Part shown: positions 9,645-53,999 of the stretch, in pieces
Position numbering within the stretch: position 1 is the first letter of the stretch
Layout of the letters: each line of letters starts with the position of its first letter
NCBI GenBank assembly: GCA_052168235.1
Contig: JBQLZK010000050.1
Location: 1-57,957 of the forward strand
Origin: Thainema sp.
GTDB lineage: Bacteria > Cyanobacteriota > Cyanobacteriia > Phormidesmidales > Phormidesmidaceae
Direction: 5' to 3'
DNA length: 57,957 nt
The notes under the pieces: generated by a model
Seen by the model: the letters and a program-made list of their open reading frames with translations, nothing else
Told to the model about the DNA's origin: nothing
Databases searched by the model: none
Translations under genes and position numbers: made by a program

Positions 9645-10538
9645 ATGACACGTTTACGAATTTCCGCTTTCAAGTCTCAATGCACAAACCGACGCTTTCC
9701 AGTCTCGATCTTGCTAGGGGGGATGGCGTTGGCTAGTTTGAGTGGGATAGCGATTCATAGCTATGCGCAGCAGTCTATTCCGGCCCGCATTAATCGCTGG
9801 CTGGCTGTTCGCAACGTCGCTGGCAATGTGAACTATCTGAAGGGAAATGACGCGCGCCCTGCGAAAGTTGGGGATCGGATACAGCAGGTGGGAGAGGGCA
9901 TTAACACGGGAGAAAATTCGACTGCCACCCTGGAAGTGGATACGGGAATTGGCTTTATTGATGTGTCTGAACAGACGAATTTACGGGTGCGGACATTGGA
10001 GTTCGCGCCGGATAATGGCCGCATTACCCATCTGTACGTGAGTCAAGGGCAAGCGCGGTTGCGGGTTCGTACCTTTACGCATCGGGGATCAGAACTGGAA
10101 ATCGAGACGCCTGCGGGAGTGAGTGGTGTGCGGGGTACAGATTTTGGTATCAACGTGCATACCGATGGCCGAATGGCGATCGCAACTTTAGAAGGTCGAG
10201 TGGATACGACGGCTGAGGGTGAAACGGTTGCAGTCCCCGATGGCTTCCAGAACTTTACGATTCCGGGAGAACCACCGACGCCAGCCGTACCGCTGCGCAA
10301 TGATACGAGCTTAAACTATCGGATTCGGCGACAGTTTTCCGGATCTCAGCGTCGATTGTTGCTGATTGGCGAAGTTGATCCCGTTAATATTGTGCTGATT
10401 GAAGATGAACCGCAGCCGCTGAATCGTGATGGACGATTCACGGTGGAGCTACCTGCCCGTACGCGAGTTAGTTTGGAAGTGACGGTGATTACACCCCTCG
10501 GACGGGAAGAAACCCATGAGATTCTGGTGCGCCCCTAG
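9645..10538 (+). CDS. FecR-domain protein with signal peptide
   Basis: INTGENSTATL...VSEQTNL...GQARLRV...IETPAGVSGVRGTDF...TLEGRV FecR signature. Confidence 0.88.
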   Translation: MTRLRISAFKSQCTNRRFPVSILLGGMALASLSGIAIHSYAQQSIPARINRWLAVRNVAGNVNYLKGNDARPAKVGDRIQQVGEGINTGENSTATLEVDTGIGFIDVSEQTNLRVRTLEFAPDNGRITHLYVSQGQARLRVRTFTHRGSELEIETPAGVSGVRGTDFGINVHTDGRMAIATLEGRVDTTAEGETVAVPDGFQNFTIPGEPPTPAVPLRNDTSLNYRIRRQFSGSQRRLLLIGEVDPVNIVLIEDEPQPLNRDGRFTVELPARTRVSLEVTVITPLGREETHEILVRP

Positions 10539-12876
10539 AGCATTTGGTCGGGCTTTAACCCATCATCCGATTTGGCATGCGGGGTGGCGTATACTGCCGG
10601 GAATAGCAACTGCACTTGCGATCGCAGGTCTGTTTCAGTTAGAAGTCTTGCGACCGCTGGAACAAATGGCGTACCGGAGTTTGTTTCATCTGCGGGGGGA
10701 ACGACCTTGGGATGAGCGGCTAGTGCTAATTGAAATCGACGACCGCAGTTTGCAGCAGTTGGGTCGCTTTCCCTGGTCGCGATCTCGCTATGCCAGCTTG
10801 TTAAACCAGCTTTCTGCCAGCCAATCATCGGTAGTGGTCTTTAACTTGCTCTGGTCAGAACCTAGTTCAGACGATGCGGCACTGGCGGCAGCAATTGATC
10901 AGCATGGTCGAATCGTATTGTCGCAAGCCTGGGCGGCGACGTCGGAGCAGCTTTCCCCAGTGCCGCTATTGGCAGAGGGTGCGATCGCAATTGGCCATAT
11001 TCAGCAGCAGAAGAGTAGCGATGGCATTGTGCGAACGCTCTTGCCCTATATTGATGGCGAGCCAGCCTTAAGCGTGGCTGCTGTGCAAGCCTATAGTCTA
11101 GTGGCTGAGTCGATACCGCTGCCCACTGCAGATGACCCTGTGTGGATCAACTGGCCTGCTGCCAGTCGGACGCTGCCGACCTATTCTTTTGTGGATGTGT
11201 ATCAAGGTCTGGTTCCGCCTGAAACCTGGGATAACAAAATTGTGCTGGTGGGCGTGACGGCTACGGGTATTGATGAGATGGTGACGCCATTTGACTATGA
11301 GCCGCCCGCCAATAGTGTGCATCTTCATGCGGCGGCATTGACTAGTTTGCTCCAGCAAAACTGGCTAAAGCCGATGCCGCAGGTCGGCTGGCTGCTAATT
11401 TTGTTCGTGGGTGGGCCAGGGCTGAGCTGGCTGATGACGGGATGCTCAACCCGCAAGCAGTTTGGCATGGTGACGGGACTGAGCATGAGCTGGGGCATCT
11501 TGAGCCTGCTGCTGTTTCGGGCAAATTACCTGCTGCCCGTGGCGACACCGCTGATTCTATTTTGCGCAACAGCCATTGCGATCGCACTGATTGAGCGGCT
11601 GCGGGAAAGCCAGCTTCTCCAGCAGCAGATTGAGCAACTTTGGACGATGTATCAAACCGATTTGGTTGGCCCGACGGGGGAGCTGGCGCTGCCTGTTGAT
11701 CACTGGACGGAACCGAGCTTTATCTACCGTCCGGTTTCCCTGTGGCGGATTACCCAGCTATCTGCGATCGCGCAGCAACTGGGCCGATCCCAATCGACGC
11801 AAACGGCCATTGCCCAGAGCTTATCGGTTGGTTTGCTCGCTGCCCATGAGGATGAGCGGATTTGGTTTCTCAATTCAGTCGCAGCCCACTGTCTGCAAGT
11901 AGAGGTCGGGCAGGACTTAACCAGTTGTCTTGTGCCCCACTGGCTGACGGCTGAAGACTGGCATACGGTGCGTCAACGGCTGTTGGATACGCAAATGGTC
12001 GATATTAAAGAGGTGTATCGCGATCATCACTGGTATGAACTGCAGTTTGAACTGCTGCACTATCCGCTGCCGACCTTTCAGCCGGACGAAAAGCGGGTTC
12101 TCAATGGCTGGCTGCTGCTGATTAAAGATATTAGCGATCGCAAACAAATTGAAACGAATTTGAGCCGTCAAATCGAGGAACAGCGGCAGCTCAATGTGAT
12201 GAAGGATGATTTTTTGAGCACGGTGTCCCATGAGCTGCGATCGCCGATGGCCAATATCAAGATGTCGATTCAACTGCTGGAAATTGCGCAGACACCGGAA
12301 CAGCGTGAGCGGTATCTGGAGATTTTGCGGGCCGAGTGCGATCGCGAAACGGATTTGATTAATGATCTGCTTGATCTCCAGCGTTTAGAAGCTGGAGCTA
12401 AGGATCTCCTGCCTGAACCAATTCCGATTCCGGTTTGGTTGCCCCATATTGCCGAATCGTTTCAGGGGCGGATCCTGGAGCGACAGCAACATCTGGAAAT
12501 AGACTGTCCCGAAGATTTACCCAGCGTCACCACCGACCGCTTGTGCTTGGAGCGAATTCTGGGCGAGCTGATTCACAACGCCTGCAAATACACGCCTCCG
12601 ACTGAACGGATTACGGTGCGGGCCGTGGCGGTATCGCAACACCTGATGATTCAAGTGCAAAATTCCGGTGCCGAAATTCCAGCAGCTGAACTACCGCGCA
12701 TTTTTGATAAGTTCTATCGGGTGGCTAGCGGCGACCGCTGGCAGCAGGGCGGCACGGGACTGGGGCTAGCGCTGATTAAAAAACTGACGGAACTCCTGGG
12801 CGGAGAAATTTGCGTTACCAGTCGGGACAACTTGACCACGTTTACTGTGCAACTGCCTCAGAAGATCGCAGAGTAA
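10516..12876 (+). CDS. CHASE2-domain sensor histidine kinase
   Basis: CHASE2 (IEIDDRSL, GRFPWSR, KIVLVG), 3 TM, PAS-like segment, SHELRSPM H-box, ELIHNACKY N-box, GTGLGL G2 box. Confidence 0.92.
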   Translation: MRFWCAPRAFGRALTHHPIWHAGWRILPGIATALAIAGLFQLEVLRPLEQMAYRSLFHLRGERPWDERLVLIEIDDRSLQQLGRFPWSRSRYASLLNQLSASQSSVVVFNLLWSEPSSDDAALAAAIDQHGRIVLSQAWAATSEQLSPVPLLAEGAIAIGHIQQQKSSDGIVRTLLPYIDGEPALSVAAVQAYSLVAESIPLPTADDPVWINWPAASRTLPTYSFVDVYQGLVPPETWDNKIVLVGVTATGIDEMVTPFDYEPPANSVHLHAAALTSLLQQNWLKPMPQVGWLLILFVGGPGLSWLMTGCSTRKQFGMVTGLSMSWGILSLLLFRANYLLPVATPLILFCATAIAIALIERLRESQLLQQQIEQLWTMYQTDLVGPTGELALPVDHWTEPSFIYRPVSLWRITQLSAIAQQLGRSQSTQTAIAQSLSVGLLAAHEDERIWFLNSVAAHCLQVEVGQDLTSCLVPHWLTAEDWHTVRQRLLDTQMVDIKEVYRDHHWYELQFELLHYPLPTFQPDEKRVLNGWLLLIKDISDRKQIETNLSRQIEEQRQLNVMKDDFLSTVSHELRSPMANIKMSIQLLEIAQTPEQRERYLEILRAECDRETDLINDLLDLQRLEAGAKDLLPEPIPIPVWLPHIAESFQGRILERQQHLEIDCPEDLPSVTTDRLCLERILGELIHNACKYTPPTERITVRAVAVSQHLMIQVQNSGAEIPAAELPRIFDKFYRVASGDRWQQGGTGLGLALIKKLTELLGGEICVTSRDNLTTFTVQLPQKIAE

Positions 12877-41766: not shown

Positions 41767-41819
41767 GCAAATCCATATCTGCCTGGTTCTAAGCGCGCGT
41801 AGCGCTATGTTTCGCAAAC

Positions 41820-41897
41820 TGAGAACTCAAAGCGGCGATTTTGCTAGCGCATCACGGTGGCAAAGTCGCCGCTTTGGGTTTGGAGTGCAAAATGTGA
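41820..41897. repeat. Palindromic MITE-like repeat, family B copy 2
   Basis: TGAGAACTCAAAGCGGCGATTTTGC...GCAAAGTCGCCGCTTTGGG...GTGCAAAATGTGA aligns by eye with 33171-33247. Confidence 0.65.
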
Positions 41898-42139
41898 ATA
41901 AGAACCTATCCGAATATCTCGCTTTGGTCGCGACACACTAGGGGTTTGAGAGGGTTTCCGGATAGGCTCTAAACAGGTATCAGCTTGATTAAAAAATAGA
42001 GGGCACTATTTCGACGCCCTCCTGTTTTTCTATTCTGGCCTTTGGAATTTTCAGAATTAGATTTTTCTGTCTTCACTCCCAAAATATTACTAAAAAGCAG
42101 ATGTTGATTTCTGGGGATTTATCAACAATATTTTGGTGG

Positions 42140-42190
42140 GTTTTGATAGTTGATATGCCACTCTTTGCGCGGCACGTCAATCATCAAAAC
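42140..42190. repeat. Palindromic dispersed repeat, family A copy 2 (degenerate)
   Basis: GTTTTGATAGTTGATATGCC...GCGCGGCACGTCAATCATCAAAAC matches 8844-8894; flanks match in inverted orientation. Confidence 0.7.
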
Positions 42191-42378
42191 TGATTTGACA
42201 ATAATTTAATAGAAAGATGTTCTAAGGACTTACGCCTTACGCAAACAAAAGCTAATAAAATCAGTTTTTATTTTTAGGCAGGGGTATTATTCTGCATAAG
42301 CTCCTCTGCCTTAGAGATAGAGGGCTGTAGTTTAGAGCGATTAACGTTCATCTTTGTTGGATAAGCTCCACCCAATCT

Positions 42379-45300
42379 ATGATGAAACCTTCTATCCAGC
42401 CTGCATTGTCTTTACTCTCAATTGGTGCCGTGAGTGGCGTTATTAGTGCGATCGCAACTGCTGCACCTCCAGTACTTGCCCAAGTGGATGCCGTATTTGA
42501 TGGCACAATGGGACCAGCCGGAAGATTAAACGGTGGCGTGGTTCTGCCTAGCCAAGGCACCACAAACGGCACGAACCTCTTCCATAGTTTTTCCCGGTTC
42601 AATGTGTTCAACGGTGCCACAGTGACATTTAACAGCGGTGGCGCGAACAACATTGTGACACGGGTGACAGGGAATACATCTTCCATTATTGATGGTACAC
42701 TCAGCGCCGACGCCAATTTCTTCTTTATCAATCCCTCCGGCATCATTTTCCAAGACGAAGCGCAACTTGATATCAATGGTTCGTTTGTGGCCACGACTAC
42801 TGATGGGGTATACGGCGGTAATCGAGTTAATCAACAATTTAATGCCCGCACAGGTAATCTACTCACCTTCAATGGTGATCCCAGCGGTTTTTTGGCGTCT
42901 CAAGCAACACCCGGTGATATTCAAGTCAATGGCAGTTCGCTGAGCGTTAATCCGGGCGAGAATCTGATGCTGTTAGGCGGAAACGTTACGCTGAATAGTG
43001 CAACATTAACGGCTCCAGGTGGATTTATTGAAATTGGTAGTTCTGCGGGCAACACTCCAATTTCATTAGCCCCAAATGCATCTTTTGATAATGCCTTTAC
43101 CTTTGGCTTTGAAGATAACACTAATCGCTTAAATGTTTCAGTTGGCAATAATTCTCTGCTTAATGTTGCCATGACCAATGATGCAGTTGCTACCGGTATA
43201 ACTAGTGGCGGTAGCCTCAGAATTACGGCAGAAAATATTACCGTTAATCGTAGTACGATTTGCGGAGGAATTGGAACAACGGCTGATGGGGCATGCGGTG
43301 TTCCTGAAGCCGTCAATGCGAATGAAGCTGGTAATTTAGTGCTAGCTGCAACAGGAACGGTCGCTATTAGTGGAGAAAGCTTAATTACGAATCGAATTGC
43401 CGAGAACTCTTCTGGAACGAGCGAAACCATACTTGAAGCGATAGAAGATCCGGTCAGCGCAAGATTTTTTGGTTCAATTGTAATTGGTGGTGATTCGATT
43501 CAAATTAGTAACAGCACTACCAGCACAAGCACGTTTGGGAATGGAAATGCCGGAGCTATATTTTTGCTAGCTGATGGGAATATTCAAGTTGACAATAGTG
43601 GAATTTTTAGCCAAGTTGTTGCTGGCGCGCAGGGCAATTCTGGAATTATCTTAGCGATTTCAGATTCTGCTACATTTAATCGCTCTAGTATTATTTCAAG
43701 TACCGCAGGCAGCAATAGTGGCAGTGCGGCGGGTGGAATTGGTATTCAAACGACTGGAGCCCTGACCTTTTCGGATGACAGTTTGATTTTTAGCAATATT
43801 GAATCTGGCGCTGCAAATGGTATTGGTGGAGCTGTTGTGATTGAAGCAGGATCACTCAAGCTGTTGAGTGGTAGCCAAGTCCAAACGCTGGTGCGCGAGG
43901 CGGCAGACGGTCTGCCAGCTGCACGTGGCAATGCAGGTAGGATTGAAATTAATGTCGAGGGAGCAACGGCTATTTCCGGAAATAGCCGTGTGAATGGCTT
44001 GCCTAGCGGCATTTTCAGCATTGTAGGAGAAGGCGCAGAGGGGAATGGCGGAGTAATCGAGCTTAGTTCTGGTTCCCTTGCAATTAGTGGTGGACGAATT
44101 GGGACGGATATTTTTGGTATTGGCAATGCGGGTGTCGTTCTGATCGCAGTAGATGGAACGACAGAGCTAAAAAATGGTGGCATTATCAGTAGCGTAGTTG
44201 GCTCTGGTGGAGTTACAAGTGCGCCGACCGGAAGTAGCTTTTCAGGGGATGAGATTGGCGTTGTTGAAGAAGCAGGAATTGAAGAAGCAATTGGAGCGAT
44301 TTTCATCAGCACTGGGGCTCTTTCTTTGAGTAATGAATCGGCAATTAGTACAAGTACCTTTGGTCAAGGAGATGCTGGTGGCATTTTGATCTTCTCTGAA
44401 GGAACTGTTTTCTTAACTTCGGGAAGTGCGATCGCAAGTGCTGTGGATCAAGGGCTACAGCAGTCCAGCGGTATTATTTTAATCATTGCGAATGATATCG
44501 GCGTTGTCGGTGGCTCTATCATCAGTGTCGAAAATCAAGGACTGGGTGAAGCTGGAAACTTGTTCTTGCTTGCCAATGAACTACTGGTTGTAGAGACGGC
44601 TGATAGCATTAATTCACTTTTTCCTAGTCAACTATCGGCGACGACTGAAGACGGTTCTCAAGCTAACATCAGCATTTTTGCACCGCTGCTCGTCCTAGCA
44701 GGTGGTAGCGAAATCACGACGGATGCAGGCGTCGGCGATGGCGGTAATATTACAATCCTGTCATCGTTCGTTTATGGTACTCCCTTCGCGGATAACAACA
44801 TTGTGGCACGGGCAATTCAAGGCCGTGGCGGTAACATTACCATCCAGGGAGCCCTAGGAATTGAATTTACGCTGTTGCGAGATATTGATGAGCGAATTCG
44901 AGATTTCGGGACCAGTAACGATATTACGGCAGCATCTGAGTTTGGGATTAATGGCAGCGTTACGCTGAATGCGCTGCAAATTGATCCGGTGCGGGAGTCA
45001 GAAGATTTGCCACAGGATGTCGTGGATGTATCGCGGCTAGTGGCACAGGGCTGTGCAGCAGGTAGTATTCCAGACGTGAGTAATATTGGGGAACTGTTTA
45101 TCAGAGGGCGGGGCGGATTGCCGCAGAACCCGGAACAGGTGCTGGGTAGTGGTATAACCGCGACTGACTTGGTGACGCTAGATTCCGCCGTGGGAGCTTC
45201 ATCAGATGCAGAAGATGCAGAAGATGCAGAACTAATTGCTGAACCGCCTGCCACTGAATCAGCGGCAGATGCAGTCGTTGAAACTAATGACACAGACAAC

Positions 45301-45489
45301 ACCAATGCTGTGACCAGTGCGATCGCAATTCATCGCAATCCGGGGATGCAGGCGATCACAACGCCTGTGATTGAAGCCCAAGGTTTTCAGTTAGATAAAG
45401 ATGGTACGGTTCAGCTAGTTTCCCAAGCAGCGGACACAATGCCTGCCCAGCCAGTCTTTAGAACGCTTACCTGTCGCGATATTAATTAA
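42379..45489 (+). CDS. Filamentous haemagglutinin-family two-partner secretion passenger (TpsA)
   Basis: Signal peptide; TPS domain NLFHSFSRFNV, NIVTRVTG, FFINPSGIIF; Gly-rich beta-helix repeats; C-terminal QGC...GRGGLP...IEAQG...C. Confidence 0.93.
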   Translation: MMKPSIQPALSLLSIGAVSGVISAIATAAPPVLAQVDAVFDGTMGPAGRLNGGVVLPSQGTTNGTNLFHSFSRFNVFNGATVTFNSGGANNIVTRVTGNTSSIIDGTLSADANFFFINPSGIIFQDEAQLDINGSFVATTTDGVYGGNRVNQQFNARTGNLLTFNGDPSGFLASQATPGDIQVNGSSLSVNPGENLMLLGGNVTLNSATLTAPGGFIEIGSSAGNTPISLAPNASFDNAFTFGFEDNTNRLNVSVGNNSLLNVAMTNDAVATGITSGGSLRITAENITVNRSTICGGIGTTADGACGVPEAVNANEAGNLVLAATGTVAISGESLITNRIAENSSGTSETILEAIEDPVSARFFGSIVIGGDSIQISNSTTSTSTFGNGNAGAIFLLADGNIQVDNSGIFSQVVAGAQGNSGIILAISDSATFNRSSIISSTAGSNSGSAAGGIGIQTTGALTFSDDSLIFSNIESGAANGIGGAVVIEAGSLKLLSGSQVQTLVREAADGLPAARGNAGRIEINVEGATAISGNSRVNGLPSGIFSIVGEGAEGNGGVIELSSGSLAISGGRIGTDIFGIGNAGVVLIAVDGTTELKNGGIISSVVGSGGVTSAPTGSSFSGDEIGVVEEAGIEEAIGAIFISTGALSLSNESAISTSTFGQGDAGGILIFSEGTVFLTSGSAIASAVDQGLQQSSGIILIIANDIGVVGGSIISVENQGLGEAGNLFLLANELLVVETADSINSLFPSQLSATTEDGSQANISIFAPLLVLAGGSEITTDAGVGDGGNITILSSFVYGTPFADNNIVARAIQGRGGNITIQGALGIEFTLLRDIDERIRDFGTSNDITAASEFGINGSVTLNALQIDPVRESEDLPQDVVDVSRLVAQGCAAGSIPDVSNIGELFIRGRGGLPQNPEQVLGSGITATDLVTLDSAVGASSDAEDAEDAELIAEPPATESAADAVVETNDTDNTNAVTSAIAIHRNPGMQAITTPVIEAQGFQLDKDGTVQLVSQAADTMPAQPVFRTLTCRDIN

Positions 45490-45509
45490 ACCTACAACTC
45501 AGTCTAGAC

Positions 45510-47300
45510 ATGACGCAGTCTGTTTTATCTCACCCGGTGTCGCTACCGCTAATTGTTGCGATCGCAGTTAGCTCTTGCCAGCTCAAAGCTTTCGCAGCCA
45601 CGCCTCACCACCTGAACTTAAGCCCTGAATCCCCTGAGCTAATGGCACAGGCAGTGCCAACTTCACCGCAGCCTCCTCGGCCAGAGCCAGCTCTGGAGCC
45701 TGAGCTAGAGTTTGAGGTGCCGGAACCCTTACCGCCACCAGAGCAACTGGTGCCGCCATCAGAAGCTGTACCCTCGCCGCTAGAGGAAACAGAGGCAGCA
45801 CCGATCACAATTGTGGTAGAGCGGTTTGAATTTGAAGGGAATACCGTTTTCACTGATCAGGAGTTGGCAGAGCTGCTAGCTCCCTACACCGGAGAGAGCA
45901 TCGCCTTTTCCCAGCTATTAGAAGCGCGATCGCAAATCACGAATGCCTATGCAGCAGCGGGATATACAACCTCTGGGGCACTGGTGCCGCCTCAAACCTT
46001 TACAGAAGGCGTGGTAACGATTCAAATCATTGAGGGACAGCTTGGTGGGATTAATATAACGGGAGTTGAACGATTAGATTCAGACTATGTGATTGACCGA
46101 CTGGCTGTTGCTGGTGATCCCCTCAATGTCGATGTTTTAGTTGAGCGGCTACAGCTGCTACAGCTTGATCCACTCATCCAAACCGTATCGGCTGAATTAT
46201 CGGCTGGGGTGCGTCCTGGTACGAGTATTTTGGATGTCGAAGTGACGGAAGCAGATTCGTTTGCGGTTGAATTTGGCATTGATAATAACCGAGTACCGAG
46301 TGTCGGCACATTTCGGCAGCGGGTAGAACTCCGAGAAGCCAATCTGCTAGGAGACGGTGAACGGTTAAGCGTGGGCTATGGCCGCACAGACGGCAGTGAT
46401 GCCTTAGAGCTAGGCTTTCAGTTTTTCACGAATCCGCGCAATAACAGTACGCTGAGCTTGCGGGCCGGATACTCCCAAAATGAGGTGGTTGAAGGAATTT
46501 TTGAGCGACTCGACCTCGATACCCGATCCTACTTCTTGGAAGCGTCCTATCGGCAGCCAATCATCCTTAAGCCTTCTGAGGAGCTAGCTTGGGGGCTGAC
46601 TCTGTCGCACCAAGAGAGCCGCAGCCAGTTTTTGGGCAGCTTCCTCGGTCGGTCGATTCCCTTTACGTCGATTAGCTCCGATGATGAGGGCCGAACGCGA
46701 GTAACGGCGCTGCGCTTCTTTCAGGACTGGACGCGACGGGGTGAGCGTGAAATTTTGTCGTTGCGATCGCAGTTTAACTTAGGGCTAGACTTACTCGAAC
46801 CAACCATTCAAAGCGATGGTCGCCCCGATAGTCGCTTTTTCTCATGGCGAGGTCAAGGGCAATGGGTGCGGCTGTTGGCTCCAGACACCATCTTTTTAGC
46901 TCGCGCTGATTTGCAGTTTGCGGATCAGGCACTTGTGCCACTGGAACAGCTTGGCCTAGGGGGATTAAACACTGTACGAGGCTATCGGCAAGATTTACTA
47001 TTAACAGATAATGGCTTCTTCGCGTCTGCGGAAGCGCGGTTTCCCATTCTGCGAGTACCAGAAATTGAAGGATTGCTGCAGATTACTCCCTTCGTTGATT
47101 TTGGTGTGGGCTGGAATAGTGAATTTATTGATCCCGATCCCAATACCTTACTATCAACGGGATTGGGCCTGCTGTGGCAGCAGGGCGATCGCCTGTCGGC
47201 TCGGCTTGATTTTGGGATTCCGCTAATTGATGTTGAATCCGTCGGCAATTCACTACAAGAAGACGGCATTTATTTTTCGATTTTGTACACGCCTTTTTAG
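45510..47300 (+). CDS. ShlB/FhaC/HecB-family TpsB outer-membrane transporter
   Basis: POTRA domain (FEFEGNTVF, GYTTSGALVPPQ, IQIIEG), LGGLNTVRGY motif, terminal aromatic residue. Confidence 0.95.
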   Translation: MTQSVLSHPVSLPLIVAIAVSSCQLKAFAATPHHLNLSPESPELMAQAVPTSPQPPRPEPALEPELEFEVPEPLPPPEQLVPPSEAVPSPLEETEAAPITIVVERFEFEGNTVFTDQELAELLAPYTGESIAFSQLLEARSQITNAYAAAGYTTSGALVPPQTFTEGVVTIQIIEGQLGGINITGVERLDSDYVIDRLAVAGDPLNVDVLVERLQLLQLDPLIQTVSAELSAGVRPGTSILDVEVTEADSFAVEFGIDNNRVPSVGTFRQRVELREANLLGDGERLSVGYGRTDGSDALELGFQFFTNPRNNSTLSLRAGYSQNEVVEGIFERLDLDTRSYFLEASYRQPIILKPSEELAWGLTLSHQESRSQFLGSFLGRSIPFTSISSDDEGRTRVTALRFFQDWTRRGEREILSLRSQFNLGLDLLEPTIQSDGRPDSRFFSWRGQGQWVRLLAPDTIFLARADLQFADQALVPLEQLGLGGLNTVRGYRQDLLLTDNGFFASAEARFPILRVPEIEGLLQITPFVDFGVGWNSEFIDPDPNTLLSTGLGLLWQQGDRLSARLDFGIPLIDVESVGNSLQEDGIYFSILYTPF

Positions 47301-47315
47301 ATTGGAGCTAGGGTT

Positions 47316-50288
47316 ATGAAGCATCGCCTCCGTTTCCTGTTCTATAGTCTACTGGCCTTACTCACGGCAAGTTGGATCGTGCTGGCTAAGCCAGGACTGA
47401 CCGATCAGCCTGCTGCTGAGCGAGCCCAATCTGTCGCGGGTTCTACCATTGATCTAGTTGTCCCACAGGTTATTGGTCAACAGCTCGATCAACAGCTTGA
47501 TCAATCTATCGATCAGCTGCAATTATCCCAAGCTAGCCAACTGGAACAAGAGGCTCGATCCGCCTATCGCAACGGTCAGTATGCTGCGGCTGTCCGAGCG
47601 TTTCAGACTGCGGCAGAGGCTTATGCGGCAGCAGGAGACAGGGTACAGCAGGCGGCCATGCTGAGCAATCTATCTCTGGCCTATCAGCAGCTAGGGGAAT
47701 GGACGACGGCAGAGGAAGCTATTACAACCGCTATTTCCCTCCTACAGCCAGATACGGTTTCAGAGCCGATTGCACGTAGTCCACAGCAGTGGTCAGCTCT
47801 GGCTCAGAGCCAGAGCATTCAGGCTCAGCTACAGTTTGCGCAGGGACAGGCAGAAGCCGCAGAAGCAACTTGGCAGCAGGCTGAGGTGGCTTATCAAGCG
47901 GCCAGTGATCTGCCGGGTATGCTGACTAGCCAAATTAACCGGGCGCAGGCGCTACAGGCAATTGGCTTCTATCCAGACGCTCTTAAGCTGCTCACATCAG
48001 TGGTAGAGGGTTTACAGGATCAACCTGATTCAGCTTTAAAGGTAATGGCACTCCAAAACTTGGGAGCGGCCCAGATCATCAACGGAGATTTAGAAACTGC
48101 GGAACATACGCTGCAGCAGAGCCTGGAACTGGCTCAACAGCTCGGTTTGGCAGATGCAGAAAGCGCGGCTTATCTGAGCCTGGGCGATTTGCAACTTCAG
48201 CGGCAACAAGCCGTTGACGGTAATGTGCCACTGACTAGTGCTCAGGTTGCCTATCAGCAAGCTGCGATCGCAGCTCAGTCTCCACTTGCCCAAGTAGACG
48301 CTCAGCTCAAGCATTTGAATAGTCTCATTCAGCTACAGCGTTGGCAGGAAGCACAGTTACTGTGGCCTGATCTGCAAAATCAGCTTGAGCAACTGCCACC
48401 GAGCCGACGCACAATCTACGCCAATATTTCTTTCGTGACGCGGCTACAGGATCTGCGAAATGGTTTGGCGACCGTTGCTCAAGCTGCATTGCAGCCTGAG
48501 TTGGCTGAGGATTCAGCCGATGGTTCAACAAGCGATGAGTTTAGTGATGAGTTTGATATTGAATTGAGTGATGAATTTGATGATGAACCTGATCGTGTTG
48601 CACCCGTTACGCTTGAAGATAGGGCATTGCTGGCTGAGCTACTAGCGCAGTTACCAACACGGCTTGAGCTGGCGCAGCAGCTTCTCCAGGTGCGGCAGCA
48701 AGCGCATCAGCTGGGCGATCAGCGGGCAGAAGCCTATATTGTCGGACAGCTAGCGCATCTGTATGAAGAAAGCGGCCAGTGGGCGGAAGCGGAGGATTTA
48801 ACTCGGCAGGCACTGGCCTTGTCCCAAAGCGGCAATGCGCCGGACGTGGTGTATCAATGGCAGTGGCAGCTCGGTCGCTTGCGGAAAGCCCAAAACGATC
48901 GGGCAGGTGCGATCGCAGCTTATAGCGAGTCAGTTGACACCCTACAGTCCCTACGCAGCGATTTGGCAGCCGCTAGTCGAGAGTTCCAGTTCTCATTCCG
49001 CAAAGATGTGGAGCCTATCTATCGTGAACTGGTGGATTTGCTGCTGTCAGGTGATGATAATCCGGAGAACCTGGCCAAGGCGAGAGAGGTAATTGAATCG
49101 CTGCAGCTAGCGGAACTGGATAACTATTTTCGAGAAGCCTGTCTGGATGCCAACCCCGTGCAAGTTGACGAGATTGATCAGCAGGCGGCTGTCGTCTATA
49201 CCGTTGTCTTGCCTGAGCGGCTGGAGGTGCTGGTTCGCTTGCCGAATGAGGAATGGATTCATCACTCAGAACCTGTCGCGCAGACCACATTAACCGCAAC
49301 TGTGAACCAACTAGTAGAGCACCTGTCAGATCCCTTCAACATTTCATCTACAAGTTTTTCACAGCCTGAGCAAGACGGTTCCAGTGATGATGCAGTCGGG
49401 TTTGAAATCAGACCTGTTGGCGATCCGCAGGCATTTATGCGCGATGCCCAGCAGCTTTATAACTGGCTGATTCAACCCATTGCCGCCGATTTAGCAGCCG
49501 CTCAACCTCAAACGCTGGTGTTCGTCTTAGATGACCAACTGCGCAAAGTGCCGATGTCCGTACTGCATGACGGGAATCAGTATTTGATTGAGCAATATGC
49601 GATCGCACTTACACCTGGGCTTCAGCTCCTGGAAGCGGCTCCGCTGGCTCAGCGTGAGGTGCGAGCCATTGTAGCTGGACTGAGTGAAGAGCGGAAAGGT
49701 GTGGCCGTTGGTCGAGACGTGATTGATTTTCCGCAGTTGGATGCGGTGAAAGCTGAAGTTGAAACCATTCGCTCCCTGGTATCGAGTGAAGTTCTACTGA
49801 ACGAAGAGTTTGAGGCTGAACGGTTAGAACGTACCGTATCGCGCCTGCCGTTTCCGGTTGTTCATCTGGCAACGCACGGTGTGTTTAGCTCAGATCTAGA
49901 GAACACGTTTGTTCTAACCTGGGACGGCAAACTCAACGCCAATCAGCTGAGCGCCCTGCTGCAATCCAGTGAATTAATTCGAGATGGTGCAGTCGAACTT
50001 CTGGTATTAAGCGCTTGTGAAACCGCGACAGGAGACGATCGAGCTGCTCTGGGGCTAGCTGGAATTGCGGTGCGCTCTGGGGCTCGGAGTACCCTGGCTA
50101 CACTGTGGCAGGTGAATGATACCGGAACCGCACAGTTCATGCAAAAGGTATACCAATCGCTGAGCGATACGACCCTGACCAAAGCCGAAATTGTTCGCCA
50201 AGCCCAGATTGAGCTGATCAATAGCGACAGCTATCTCAATCATCCTTTCATCTGGGCACCGTTTGTTCTAATTGGAAACTGGATTTAG
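47316..50288 (+). CDS. TPR-CHAT domain protease with N-terminal signal peptide
   Basis: TPR array, LQLAELDNYF, LYNWLIQP, catalytic VHLATHG and VLSACETA, LATLWQVND, HPFIWAPFVLIGNW. Confidence 0.95.
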   Translation: MKHRLRFLFYSLLALLTASWIVLAKPGLTDQPAAERAQSVAGSTIDLVVPQVIGQQLDQQLDQSIDQLQLSQASQLEQEARSAYRNGQYAAAVRAFQTAAEAYAAAGDRVQQAAMLSNLSLAYQQLGEWTTAEEAITTAISLLQPDTVSEPIARSPQQWSALAQSQSIQAQLQFAQGQAEAAEATWQQAEVAYQAASDLPGMLTSQINRAQALQAIGFYPDALKLLTSVVEGLQDQPDSALKVMALQNLGAAQIINGDLETAEHTLQQSLELAQQLGLADAESAAYLSLGDLQLQRQQAVDGNVPLTSAQVAYQQAAIAAQSPLAQVDAQLKHLNSLIQLQRWQEAQLLWPDLQNQLEQLPPSRRTIYANISFVTRLQDLRNGLATVAQAALQPELAEDSADGSTSDEFSDEFDIELSDEFDDEPDRVAPVTLEDRALLAELLAQLPTRLELAQQLLQVRQQAHQLGDQRAEAYIVGQLAHLYEESGQWAEAEDLTRQALALSQSGNAPDVVYQWQWQLGRLRKAQNDRAGAIAAYSESVDTLQSLRSDLAAASREFQFSFRKDVEPIYRELVDLLLSGDDNPENLAKAREVIESLQLAELDNYFREACLDANPVQVDEIDQQAAVVYTVVLPERLEVLVRLPNEEWIHHSEPVAQTTLTATVNQLVEHLSDPFNISSTSFSQPEQDGSSDDAVGFEIRPVGDPQAFMRDAQQLYNWLIQPIAADLAAAQPQTLVFVLDDQLRKVPMSVLHDGNQYLIEQYAIALTPGLQLLEAAPLAQREVRAIVAGLSEERKGVAVGRDVIDFPQLDAVKAEVETIRSLVSSEVLLNEEFEAERLERTVSRLPFPVVHLATHGVFSSDLENTFVLTWDGKLNANQLSALLQSSELIRDGAVELLVLSACETATGDDRAALGLAGIAVRSGARSTLATLWQVNDTGTAQFMQKVYQSLSDTTLTKAEIVRQAQIELINSDSYLNHPFIWAPFVLIGNWI

Positions 50289-50313
50289 TGTCATAACCCG
50301 GAGTGATAGTGCT

Positions 50314-52548
50314 ATGAAACGACGCCATTTTCTACAGTTTTCAGGGGCAGCATTTGCCTGCTTGGGGTTGAGCCAGCTTCGTTTGGTGCAAACGGGTCAA
50401 CACCTCAATCACGTATTGGCGCAGAGTGCACCACGTAAGCTGGCACTACTGGTTGGTGTTAATGAATATTTGGGAAATGTGCGATCGCTTTATGGCTGCG
50501 TCACCGATGTGGCGCTGCAGCGCGAGCTATTGCTACATCGCTACGGATTTCAGCCGGATGATGTTATGACCCTGACCGATGAGACAGCATTGCAGCCAAC
50601 TCGGGCTAATATTTTGCAGGCATTTGAGGAGCATTTAATTAATCAGGCTCAACCGGGTGATGTGGTGCTATTTCACTATTCCGGTCATGGATCGCTCGTG
50701 CAAGATGCGACAATTCCGGAATTTAATGGGTTAGACGGTACAATTGTGCCTCGCGATGGCCGGATCAATCTGAATGGACGACAGGTACAGGACATTACGG
50801 GCAAAACCCTATTTTTGCTGATGTCAGCCCTGCAAACTGAAAACGTTACGGTGATACTGGATAGCTGTCATTCCGGTGGCGGAACGCGGGGTAACTTGGT
50901 GGTACGGGCGATTTCCCCTAGCTTGAGTAGCGGCGATGCGTTGCCCAGTGACGCAGAGGTTGCTTACCAGCAGCAGTGGATGACTCGCTTAGGGCTGTCG
51001 GAAAGCGAGCTACAGGAGCGTCGCCGCGCCGGTATTGCCAAAGGAATGGCGCTGGGTTCGGCTCAAATTGATCAGTTTGCTGCTGATGCCAGATTCGATG
51101 GATTTAGTGCGGGTGCCTTCACTTACCATCTGACTCAATATCTCTGGCAGCAGCCCACCGTGCGGCCAGCCCAGGTGACGTTTAATCAGCTCGTCTTTGC
51201 TACTCAAAACATGACCAATATCGTCCAAAATCCAGTGCTACAGGTTAAACCTGGTAGCGGATTAGAGAGTAAACCGCTTTATTTACTAGAACCCGTTGCA
51301 CCTGCTGCTGAAGCTGTTGTCCAGCAGCACAGCGGTAATCAAGTTGATTTTTGGCTGGGTGGAATCTCCTCAAGTAGCCTGGTTAACTTCAGACAGGGTG
51401 CGGTTTTTGAGCTGATTAATGCTGCGGGACAGGTAGTTGGTGAAGTGGAACAGGTGGGGCGCTCTGGTTTGGTCGGGCAGGGGCGGATACGGACGACCAG
51501 GGGATCCGCTATACAGCCTGGTATGCTGCTGCGGGAGCACATTCGGGGGTTACCAACTAATTTGTCGCTGCGGGTTGGGCTGCATGAATCGCTGGGAGCT
51601 GACCAAGCTGAAGTGCGATCGCACCTGCAGTCCATCAGCCGCATTCATGTTGTTCCAGTGAATCAGCAAAGCAGTACCGATTATTTACTGGGACGAATGA
51701 CGGAAGCAACTGCTCGGGATGCTCGTCAGGCCAGTACGTCTAGCCCCCCAGCAATCGGCACAATTGGCCTCTTCTCCAGCGGCATGGTGCCCCTACCAGG
51801 AAGTTTTGGACAACCAAACGAAGCCATGAGCGATGCGATCGCGCGCCTCCGGCCTCGGTTCAAAATGCTGCTGGCTGGGCGCATCTTGGCCTCGGTCAAT
51901 AATGGCAGCGCGTCTAATCTCAATGTTGAGGTGACAGTACAACCGCACAGTAGCCGGGGTGGATTGCAGCTGGCTAGCCGGGGTGCCCAAGTAGCCGATA
52001 TTCTGCCGACTAGCGTGACGGAAGATGCCCAACGAGTATTAAATGGATCAACAGTCGAATTACAGATTACTAATCACGAGGCAACGGATCTCTATGTCAG
52101 TGTGCTGCTAATTGCGAAAAATGGTGATATTTTGCTGCTGCACCCATTGAATTGGGATGAAGCGACAACAGCGGCTCAACTTCGAGCAGGGCAACCGATG
52201 GTGATTCCCGATCCAGAGCAGTTTGAATTTGTGGCGCGCAGCCGTGGATTCTATGAGCTGTTAGTATTGGCCAGCACCCAACCCCTACACGATACGCTGC
52301 GGGGACTTCAGCGTATTGCCGGTAATCGAGGATTACGAACGGGGCAGCCTATCTTATTCGATGAGGATGAGCCGGTTGAAATTGTTGACTCAATGTTGAC
52401 CGATGCCAGTCGGGGCATTGGCGTTGTGCCATTTGACAGCTCCACTGCCACTTCGGAAGCTTCAGATTCTGCTTCGTCTGCTGGTACGGTACGGGGTATT
52501 GATTCTAATCAACTCGCTGTCATCTCAGCTACGCTGGAAGTTGTCTAG
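50314..52548 (+). CDS. Caspase-family (peptidase C14, orthocaspase) protein with Tat signal and C-terminal DUF4384-like domain
   Basis: MKRRHFLQ twin-arginine signal; KLALLVGVNEY, LYGCVTDV, catalytic HYSGHGS and LDSCHSG, GAFTYHL. Confidence 0.93.
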   Translation: MKRRHFLQFSGAAFACLGLSQLRLVQTGQHLNHVLAQSAPRKLALLVGVNEYLGNVRSLYGCVTDVALQRELLLHRYGFQPDDVMTLTDETALQPTRANILQAFEEHLINQAQPGDVVLFHYSGHGSLVQDATIPEFNGLDGTIVPRDGRINLNGRQVQDITGKTLFLLMSALQTENVTVILDSCHSGGGTRGNLVVRAISPSLSSGDALPSDAEVAYQQQWMTRLGLSESELQERRRAGIAKGMALGSAQIDQFAADARFDGFSAGAFTYHLTQYLWQQPTVRPAQVTFNQLVFATQNMTNIVQNPVLQVKPGSGLESKPLYLLEPVAPAAEAVVQQHSGNQVDFWLGGISSSSLVNFRQGAVFELINAAGQVVGEVEQVGRSGLVGQGRIRTTRGSAIQPGMLLREHIRGLPTNLSLRVGLHESLGADQAEVRSHLQSISRIHVVPVNQQSSTDYLLGRMTEATARDARQASTSSPPAIGTIGLFSSGMVPLPGSFGQPNEAMSDAIARLRPRFKMLLAGRILASVNNGSASNLNVEVTVQPHSSRGGLQLASRGAQVADILPTSVTEDAQRVLNGSTVELQITNHEATDLYVSVLLIAKNGDILLLHPLNWDEATTAAQLRAGQPMVIPDPEQFEFVARSRGFYELLVLASTQPLHDTLRGLQRIAGNRGLRTGQPILFDEDEPVEIVDSMLTDASRGIGVVPFDSSTATSEASDSASSAGTVRGIDSNQLAVISATLEVV

Positions 52549-52573
52549 TGGTTTGCCTTCTGCAGCATATTCT

Positions 52574-53002
52574 CTACGACATGGTGCGCTTCTGATCGAC
52601 CCACTTGGGTGTGCCCAATGCCGCACAAGTTGCGATCGCAGATGACTGGTATACATCTAAAGCAGATTGCAAGACCAGGCGGTCGGCATCAGACAGGCTA
52701 GCATCCCTGTTGACGATTCCTCGGATCTCCGGTGTGAGTAGGTTCACGACATGATGAGCCGTTAGTGCAACTAAGCTCTGCTCCTGGATTTGCGTAAGAT
52801 AGGTGCGTGCTGATTTGAAGACTGAGAGATTCTCGCTGGTGAATTCGTCCAGGGTTTTATAAAGCCCTTGGGCCGAGTAAAACAGATGGTAGACCGCTTT
52901 ATACGCTGCGCTTTGTTGGCCTGCGTCGCTGACTTTGCCCTGCACAAACTGAAAGAATTGCTGTGTATCAGGCTTCATCACTCTAGGTGAGTAGTATTTC
53001 AT
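52574..53002 (-). CDS. Hypothetical protein
   Basis: Open frame of 142 aa from ATG 53002 preceded by GAGGTTGAG; no recognised motif. Confidence 0.6.
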   Translation of the reverse strand: MKYYSPRVMKPDTQQFFQFVQGKVSDAGQQSAAYKAVYHLFYSAQGLYKTLDEFTSENLSVFKSARTYLTQIQEQSLVALTAHHVVNLLTPEIRGIVNRDASLSDADRLVLQSALDVYQSSAIATCAALGTPKWVDQKRTMS

Positions 53003-53394
53003 CTCAACCTCATGCGGGTATACTGCCTCTGATCTTGCACTAAGTTGATGCGAACCTGCGCCTGCAAAATACAACACAGCCCCTGTAACTTGGCAGATTG
53101 CAGGACTGCTTGAGATTGAAGCCGAATTTAGTCCAAGACTCTGCAGAGGCTTTCTTTTTCAGCGTGGTACCCAGACCTGCTTTTTGGGATATATCCCAAA
53201 AAGCCTCTGATTGAGCCAGTTAGATAAGCGACTTAAAGTCGTTAAAGTTACAGTTAGCTGATACTTTACATTTAGTAAAGAATTTTCAACTTCCCGTGAA
53301 TTCACTATGTGCCCTCTTCCGTATTTTCTCGATGATGAGCCATGATGAAATCGTTCGGTGCTATGCTAACTTTCTATATCTAACCACTTATGAG

Positions 53395-53453: not shown

Positions 53454-53999
53454 TTAGGCGAAGGCTTTTTTCGTGAGTGTGGCCCCAACACCGACTGCGG
53501 CCAGAACACCCACGACAGAGAACGGTTCAGGTACGGATGTGGGGCGAGACGCCCCTGGCTGCAGCGCATTAAAGTCGCTGATGGTATAAAAGACTTCTTC
53601 GTCCGCCAGTTGAGCCGAGGGATTACCTGCAATGGTCAGAGGAAAGCCAAGATCGGGATCAAAAGTTGCTTCCAAGCTAAACCAGTCCTCATCCAGCCCT
53701 GTTTGAAGAATGTCAAAGTAGCCATCAATCGTGTAGACCGTGTCCAGGGTATACGGTTCACCTGAATCGGCAAAAACAACGTCGGTGATCTCACCATCTA
53801 CCACCGATACCCGATGTGGCCCTCGGACGTCTTCTAAACAAAAGCAGCCGTTTTGCACTACAAAACTATACGCTTCGGGCTTGTTTTCTTCCCACAAATT
53901 CCGATTGGCATTTAGTTCAGCCTGCGTCAGCATGGCAGCCGAAGTACTGGTACTAAACCCAACCATTAAAGCCGTTGAAATCATGAAGCTTTTGAACAT
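53454..53999 (-). CDS. PEP-CTERM sorting-domain exported protein (DUF6174-like domain)
   Basis: Signal peptide; YSF...GCFC, TIDGYF, FDPDLGFP and DEE motifs; C-terminal VPEPFSVVGVLAAVGVGATLTKK. Confidence 0.85.
   Translation of the reverse strand: MFKSFMISTALMVGFSTSTSAAMLTQAELNANRNLWEENKPEAYSFVVQNGCFCLEDVRGPHRVSVVDGEITDVVFADSGEPYTLDTVYTIDGYFDILQTGLDEDWFSLEATFDPDLGFPLTIAGNPSAQLADEEVFYTISDFNALQPGASRPTSVPEPFSVVGVLAAVGVGATLTKKAFA

Follow-up and report, generated by a model that had tools for sequence, protein, structure and literature searches.

The 57,957-nucleotide (nt) stretch of Thainema sp. DNA analysed here (hereafter the window) contains at positions 42379-52548 a cassette of four genes. 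They code for a two-partner secretion (TPS) exoprotein (TpsA), its outer-membrane transporter (TpsB), a protease in which tetratricopeptide repeats (TPR) precede a CHAT domain, and a caspase-family protease with a twin-arginine translocation (Tat) type N-terminus. All four open reading frames (ORFs) are on the forward strand, and their coordinates confirm the close, co-directional packing described in an initial annotation of this DNA, with gaps of 20, 15 and 25 nt. That annotation proposed that the filament, the CHAT protease and the caspase form a dedicated envelope cascade or an adhesin-release system. The features of the locus are as follows:

42379..45489, + strand: TpsA, filamentous-haemagglutinin-like exoprotein, 1036 amino acids (aa), with a signal-like N-terminus ending VLA-Q, a TPS domain at residues 59-273 and Gly/Ser/Asn-rich repeats
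44974..45486, + strand: C-terminal tail of TpsA, residues 866-1036, with C892, C1032 and conserved GxGG and EAQGW-like blocks; a predicted disulfide loop and putative anchor in TpsB
45510..47300, + strand: TpsB, ShlB/FhaC-type outer-membrane transporter, 596 aa, POTRA and barrel by Pfam
47316..50288, + strand: signal-peptide TPR-CHAT protease of a TpsA-associated clade ('class T'), 990 aa, dyad H854/C901, second invariant cysteine C609, separase/Csx29/DdvA-like fold
50314..52548, + strand: twin-arginine caspase-family (C14) protease with DUF4384, 744 aa, dyad H125/C185, with a GGGTRG loop that is predicted to be flexible and in which R192 is invariant
41768..52577, no strand: the whole block, missing at the syntenic site of the same-genus genome G001, where a TerB-like gene and a 167-aa gene lie 36 nt apart

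The caspase most likely starts at the ATG at 50314 (MKRRHFLQ), because its relatives begin there; an alternative TTG at 50272, upstream, overlaps the CHAT stop. GGAG lies 10 nt ahead of this ATG and likewise of the CHAT ATG. G001 is colinear with the window up to 41767 and from 52578 on, at 81-91% identity and with nothing between, and the four genes thus behave towards G001 as one cassette that is present or absent together, the comparison representing a single event. In four genomes more distant than G001 different genes follow the TerB-like gene, an arrangement compatible with both gain and loss of the block. Recent foreign origin was considered and rejected, as GC content, HIP1 density and codon use are all inside the range of the genome; third-position GC content is low in TpsA, as it is in other TpsAs. 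A promoter and terminator scan of the locus gave fewer matches than were obtained in shuffled sequence.

The CHAT protein is recognised by Pfam as TPR plus CHAT (5.4e-62), and its catalytic H854 and C901 are invariant in 27/27 aligned relatives. A predicted model (pLDDT 83) places a long TPR solenoid ahead of the protease domain and matches Csx29, DdvA and separase, with DdvA the second-best fold match (E 1.3e-12). Exported TPR-CHATs ending in GNW-x form one clade (31/31, FastTree support 0.982), which we refer to as class T and to which the window protein belongs; the remainder are referred to as class A. Signal-like N-termini, scored by our own hydrophobicity rule and not by SignalP, are present in 28/31 class-T and 72/79 class-A CHATs and in 156/481 other long ORFs of the genome, and suggest that class-T CHATs are exported to the periplasm. 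At the start of the window protein a basic stretch of 6 residues alone precedes the hydrophobic helix, and there is no sigma gene in the cassette. The second cysteine, C609, lies in a FREAC motif, is invariant in 27/27 class-T CHATs, and could pair with or shield the catalytic cysteine in an oxidising compartment. In 16/79 class-A CHATs (within L031-L170, L numbers denoting survey loci) H-x-A-T-H-A replaces H-G after the catalytic histidine.

The class-T clade is strongly linked to TpsA. TpsA is encoded within 6 kb of 26/31 class-T proteins and a caspase within 9 kb of 2/31, one of these being the window locus; this set was fetched around TpsB or CHAT matches, so that its TpsB figures are biased upward. 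We also used an independent set of 80 metagenome loci chosen by CHAT alignment alone, in 79 of which a class-T gene was called (L250 was dropped). These 79 loci contain TpsA in 42, TpsB in 16, DUF928 in 33, CHASE2 in 34 and a caspase in none, and the 28 with at least 6 kb on each side contain TpsA in 21, TpsB in 4, DUF928 in 13, CHASE2 in 14 and again no caspase. Within the Thainema genome itself (G000, with C numbers for its contigs) TpsA directly precedes CHAT on C18, C21, C50 and C64, and TPS-CHAT fusions are found on C12 and C25. The order TpsA-TpsB-CHAT recurs at six genome loci (L056, L060, L065, L069, L070 and L079) and six metagenome loci (L213, L229, L230, L231, L242 and L248), all chosen without regard to the caspase, which follows in 0/6 and 0/6, respectively; DUF928 follows in 4/6 of the metagenome triads. 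DUF928 is also the commonest gene next to class-T CHATs (among the 55 loci with 2.5 kb or more of downstream sequence it is co-directional in 17 and convergent in 5). Neither DUF928 nor CHASE2, the usual extra partners of this module, is present in the window cassette, and eight DUF928 genes lie elsewhere in the genome. The TPS-CHAT fusions are 1700-2650 aa long and include, in addition to those on C12 and C25, L062:11629-19602 and L157:11563-19227, the L062 protein having on one chain both a class-T CHAT and a partial match to the tail profile.

The genes alone place TpsA and TpsB in two-partner (type Vb) secretion, which calls for a TPS-domain exoprotein and an adjacent POTRA/ShlB transporter. 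The TPS domain matches PF05860 with 113.9 bits (cut-off 33.5, E 1.6e-32) as well as TIGR01901, and TpsB, 20 nt downstream, matches PF08479 (POTRA_2) and PF03865 (ShlB); the signal peptide of TpsA was recognised by inspection of its N-terminus. TpsA has no Pfam or NCBIfam domain apart from TPS, and no small immunity-type gene follows it, the next gene being TpsB. The absence of a toxin tip and of an immunity gene that the initial annotation had noted is borne out, and a contact-dependent inhibition or polymorphic-toxin system was rejected on these grounds. The C-terminus is instead conserved and has a pair of cysteines: C892 and C1032 are each kept in 25/27 aligned tails, exactly two cysteines occur within the last 240 aa in 43/43 TpsA tails of the independent metagenome set, and the tail cysteines are often the only ones of mature TpsA. 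Because such a tail resembles the disulfide anchors of HMW1 and CdrA, we infer that it forms a disulfide loop that would anchor the filament in the TpsB pore. An atlas search with the tail returned only cyanobacterial 'S-layer family' or hypothetical clusters and no family, and its recognition value is low. The GRGG of the tail was considered as a fixed cut site and rejected, its invariance being limited to the glycines.

The fourth gene belongs to a second, separately distributed family. Pfam identifies Peptidase_C14 and DUF4384, and H125/C185 are conserved in 22/22 aligned relatives. Our survey of this family covers the best 80 of 576 confirmed loci, 79 of them tallied automatically, and kinship among loci makes its ratios overstate significance; the relatives named in it are nearly all cyanobacterial, and the His-Cys dyad is present in 79/79. 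The N-terminus (KRRHFL...VLA-Q) has the pattern of a Tat substrate, with RR-x-F-L, a hydrophobic stretch and an A-x-A-type cleavage site. R3 and R4 are invariant in 22/22 relatives and L35, A36 and Q37 are conserved at 90% or above; 74/79 survey members show the strict twin-arginine pattern, 3 more have the arginine pair with another hydrophobic residue, and 2 lack the N-terminus as called. RRxFL occurs in 4/5 caspase-family matches of the Thainema genome. By these motifs an active, Tat-bearing caspase is a real trait of the whole family. The intact dyads and export-like N-termini that the initial annotation recorded for the two proteases of this locus thus extend across both families.

The caspase model (pLDDT 79) finds metacaspases as its structural matches. 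Orthocaspases in the strict sense have the p20 part only, without p10. In the window protein the Pfam match spans profile positions 1-200 of 233, and plant metacaspase 9 can be aligned with the model across about 340 columns, so that a p10-like part may be present and 'metacaspase-type' may be the better label.

The usual companion of this caspase is a class-A CHAT. A CHAT is encoded within about 9 kb in 44/79 loci (26/38 with full flanks), as compared to 4.8% of random 20-kb windows of the Thainema genome; it is directly adjacent in 33/79, and directly upstream on the same strand in 20/79. At L159, which the automatic tally missed, the caspase is directly followed by a signal-bearing TPR-CHAT. 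The CHATs in the 79 loci comprise 69 class-A, 2 class-T and 1 TPS-fused protein, and other caspase neighbours include exported S8, trypsin, WD40, M23 and TPR proteins. One subclade, with the caspase on C13, has no CHAT neighbours within the examined flanks; a frequent neighbour there is a gene that, by its motif, we take to be triosephosphate isomerase. An array of at least seven TPR-CHAT genes, mostly with signal-like N-termini, surrounds a second active twin-arginine caspase at G000:C33:1-30826, and at L045:6160-8571 a signal-bearing caspase-Sel1-DUF2610 gene stands back to back with a twin-arginine caspase. The Thainema genome also encodes a YS pseudo-caspase paralogue on C94, and the YS orthologues (L016, L018, L019, L021-L025 and G000:C94) mostly adjoin a conserved gene of about 390 aa, which we provisionally take to be sulfate adenylyltransferase.

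The two modules meet infrequently. In 7/79 loci the caspase has TpsA or TpsB nearby (TpsB, within about 9 kb, in 5/79; 4/38 with full flanks), against 4.8% and, for TpsB, 0.8% of random windows. None of these loci repeats the window order; G014:C11 reads caspase-TpsB-TpsA-TpsA-CHAT on one strand, and at L131 TpsA-TpsB-CHAT faces the caspase. The TPS-linked caspases fall on about eight separate branches of the tree, and that of the window branches with array-type caspases (support 0.82). Because the orders differ and the branches are separate, we read the junction, which is recurrent, independent and uncommon, as an accessory link or as common membership of exported-protease islands. When 400 other genomes of the phylum were searched at the DNA level for the CHAT-caspase junction, no match spanned it, a result of little weight as only two candidates per genome were scored. 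The union of triad and caspase in this cassette is therefore local. With a caspase in 0/79 class-T loci and after 0/12 triads elsewhere, conservation of the caspase adjacency largely fails and the proposal of a dedicated filament-CHAT-caspase cascade is not supported, although the TpsB enrichment and the all-or-none comparison with G001 still lend it some weight; adhesin release, the other part of the original proposal, fits the two-cysteine tail.

An arginine motif is shared by the caspase and DUF928. A set of 34 DUF928 proteins contains G-x(0-2)-[ST]RG 24 times, with 1.0 expected from shuffles, and a set of 75 caspases 81 times, with 7.2 expected; the motif is not above chance in class-T CHATs, class-A CHATs, TpsA tails or CHASE2 proteins. 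In the caspases it lies in the loop right behind the catalytic cysteine, where arginine is present in 79/79 active members and R-G at Cys+7 in 77, and residues 187-206 of the window caspase, including this GGGTR192-G loop, are of low confidence or flexible in the predicted model. The window caspase also occupies the slot most often taken by DUF928. However, the same loop motif is found in caspases without a nearby CHAT and in the caspase at G000 C33:38735, which lacks the Tat motif, and because of this self-cleavage may explain it equally well. No longer (fused) caspase form was found, which is weak evidence.

The closest parallel is CdrA/CdrB of Pseudomonas aeruginosa, where C-terminal cysteines are thought to hook the TpsA in its TpsB and the periplasmic cysteine protease LapG cuts the CdrA tail and releases the protein, according to the accounts in PMC5422565 and PMC11898600. 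The window TpsA has the corresponding cysteine pair, C892 and C1032. It differs in having as its protease a clan CD TPR-CHAT from the same putative operon and in a predicted loop that spans about 140 residues; the locus, to which our search for them was confined, encodes only CHAT and C14 proteases and neither LapG nor a LapD-type cyclic di-GMP receptor. By analogy, the cassette may work like CdrA/CdrB/LapG but is not a member of that system. In Haemophilus a C-terminal disulfide loop, as summarised in PMC5422565, locks HMW1 and HxuA in the pores of HMW1B and HxuB; the two-cysteine tail is comparable to this, although those operons, as far as that source describes them, have no dedicated protease gene.

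Among the proteases, DdvA of Myxococcus xanthus (PDB 8rw5, 8rot) is likewise a TPR-CHAT with a His-Cys dyad, and is a studied periplasmic example according to PMC11506125; the view in the initial annotation that the studied CHAT and caspase systems act in the cytoplasm is thus incorrect. DdvA is described there as an anti-sigma factor that spans the membrane, has its zinc domain in the cytoplasm and pairs with an extracytoplasmic function (ECF) sigma factor, whereas the window protein has only a signal peptide ahead of its TPRs and a TPS filament as its partner. Csx29 of Craspase, separase and HetF share the TPR-CHAT fold and dyad, but their catalytic domains act in the cytoplasm, and the cassette contains no CRISPR effector. 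The YS pseudo-orthocaspases are of the same family as the window caspase and have the same Tat-like N-terminus, for which PMC6426788 considers the periplasm or the lumen of the thylakoids as possible targets; they are inactive, whereas the window member retains His-Cys. PMC8283722 lists 19 true and 4 pseudo C14+DUF4384 orthocaspases, and the accounts in these two sources ascribe the Tat-like signal to the YS variant and, as far as they go, mention no association with CHAT arrays or with TPS genes. Systems of the EACC2-caspase-CHASE2 type, which include ECF sigma and DUF1822 (described in PMC8195603), often neighbour class-T CHAT/TpsA loci elsewhere, although no EACC2-caspase fusion, CHASE2, DUF1822 or ECF sigma is encoded within 41768-52577. 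Our literature search, largely of open-access text without supplements, found no description of TpsA/TpsB with an exported CHAT, nor of Tat caspases in CHAT arrays, which does not imply absence from print.

The explanation we favour, to which we give about an even chance, is that the cassette combines a widespread filament-pore-protease module with an accessory caspase and operates as a release system in the manner of CdrA/LapG. The filament would be held in the pore by the predicted disulfide loop of the TpsA tail, and the exported TPR-CHAT, by analogy with LapG cutting the CdrA tail, would likely cut either this tail or a partner attached to the tail, and so release or mature the filament. 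The cut would probably follow arginine, as PMC9457339 reports for HetF, a cyanobacterial CHAT protease. The second exported-protease module is the probable source of the twin-arginine caspase, which would be an acquired neighbour and not a required second step, and DUF928 encoded elsewhere in the genome could act in trans. On this interpretation the triad appears to be a widespread and apparently unstudied variant of regulated TpsA release.

Several points weigh against this explanation. Binding and cleavage of the tail by the CHAT are predictions, the predicted loop of about 140 residues is long, and the tail has no invariant arginine (R911 is present in 19/27) and hence no clear cut site. 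Class-T CHATs without a nearby TpsA are found at G000 C31, L073, L082 and L083 and in 7/28 full-flank loci, and tailed TpsAs without a nearby CHAT at G000 C12, C45 and C41; because some of each stand alone, the pair either is not obligate or must frequently act in trans. Co-expression of the caspase with the upstream genes is suggested here by the 25-nt gap and by their shared absence from G001, and cyanobacterial signal peptides, according to PMC12341915, may also direct proteins to the thylakoid lumen.

A signalling role is a minor but genuine contender: the class-T CHAT would sense the TpsA tail and cut DUF928 at GG-x-T/S-R-G, making or removing a ligand of a CHASE2 receptor, and this locus would use DUF928 and CHASE2 encoded elsewhere. 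The position of DUF928 as the commonest next gene, the excess of the motif in DUF928 proteins and the eight DUF928 genes in the genome all favour such a role, but neither partner is in the cassette, only 13-14 of the 28 full-flank loci have them, and cleavage of DUF928 is a prediction. The arginine loop also lends itself to a cascade in which the TpsA tail activates the CHAT, which in turn cuts the GGGTR192-G loop of the exported caspase and so switches it on, the caspase having taken over both the slot of DUF928 and its role as CHAT substrate. We consider this improbable. The caspase does sit in the usual DUF928 position, its loop arginine is universal, resembles the DUF928 motif and is predicted to be flexible, and caspases have reached TPS genes repeatedly, including the arrangements at G014:C11 and L131; yet no class-T locus of the metagenome set has a caspase, the motif extends to caspases without CHAT or Tat and may simply be an autocleavage site, and the lack of a fused form counts slightly against it. 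Equally improbable, in our estimate, is a broader version in which exported clan CD proteases form a network in the envelope and recognise a shared arginine motif (GG-x-T/S-R-G, in DUF928 and the caspase activation loop), with a disulfide-tethered filament here triggering the periplasmic TPR-CHAT to switch on the Tat-exported caspase as a bacterial extracytoplasmic initiator-to-effector cascade.

Quality control, in which a periplasmic chaperone-protease, the TPR-CHAT, would accompany TpsA to TpsB and degrade chains that stall, the caspase being unrelated to it, is suggested by the long TPR solenoid ahead of the protease and by the single CHAT that accompanies five TpsAs at G000 C21. It leaves unexplained the frequent link to DUF928 and CHASE2 as well as the fusions with a CHAT at the filament's own C-terminus, and we rate it as quite remote. 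We give very little credence to a defensive or lumenal role, with proteases that, as has been proposed for DdvA, detect proteins of phages or predators in the envelope, or that go to the thylakoid lumen, the clustering with TPS genes reflecting shared islands of exported proteins. The fold match to DdvA and Csx29, the exported S8, trypsin, M23, WD40 and TPR neighbours of the caspases, and the lumen role that PMC6426788 proposes for Tat-bearing YS pseudo-caspases are in keeping with it; the class-T clade, however, tracks TpsA specifically, TPS-CHAT fusions exist, and the cassette contains neither a sigma/anti-sigma pair nor an effector.

The surroundings of the cassette include further features. 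Upstream of TpsA are two short intergenic elements (41890-41975 and 42110-42200) that recur at many genome sites with 78-89% identity, and an inverted repeat at about 41824-41880. Downstream, the 167-aa gene (52574-53077, - strand) has no Pfam or NCBIfam match and one paralogue, on G000 C15, and a DUF6174 protein (53454-53999, - strand) has a PEP-CTERM tail near threshold. That the caspase is an old neighbour of the 167-aa gene was considered and rejected, as the gene that follows the G012 caspase matches over only 27 residues (E 3e-4) and the 80 survey loci gave no match. At 9645-12876 (+ strand), 30 kb upstream of the cassette, a FecR-domain gene overlaps a CHASE2 histidine-kinase gene and represents another kind of CHASE2 partner, one that comes without DUF928.

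Bacterial caspase-family proteases have mostly been discussed as cytoplasmic cell-death or anti-phage enzymes. Here two whole cyanobacterial families combine export-like signals with intact active sites, one of the two accompanying a filament whose tail resembles an anchor. The four-gene cascade is not a conserved system and so matters less than the initial annotation held. If filament release is correct, the triad would be a switch of the LapG kind that employs a separase-type protease, with a named substrate and two cysteines on which it can be tested, and it would bear on attachment, mat formation and dispersal of filamentous cyanobacteria.

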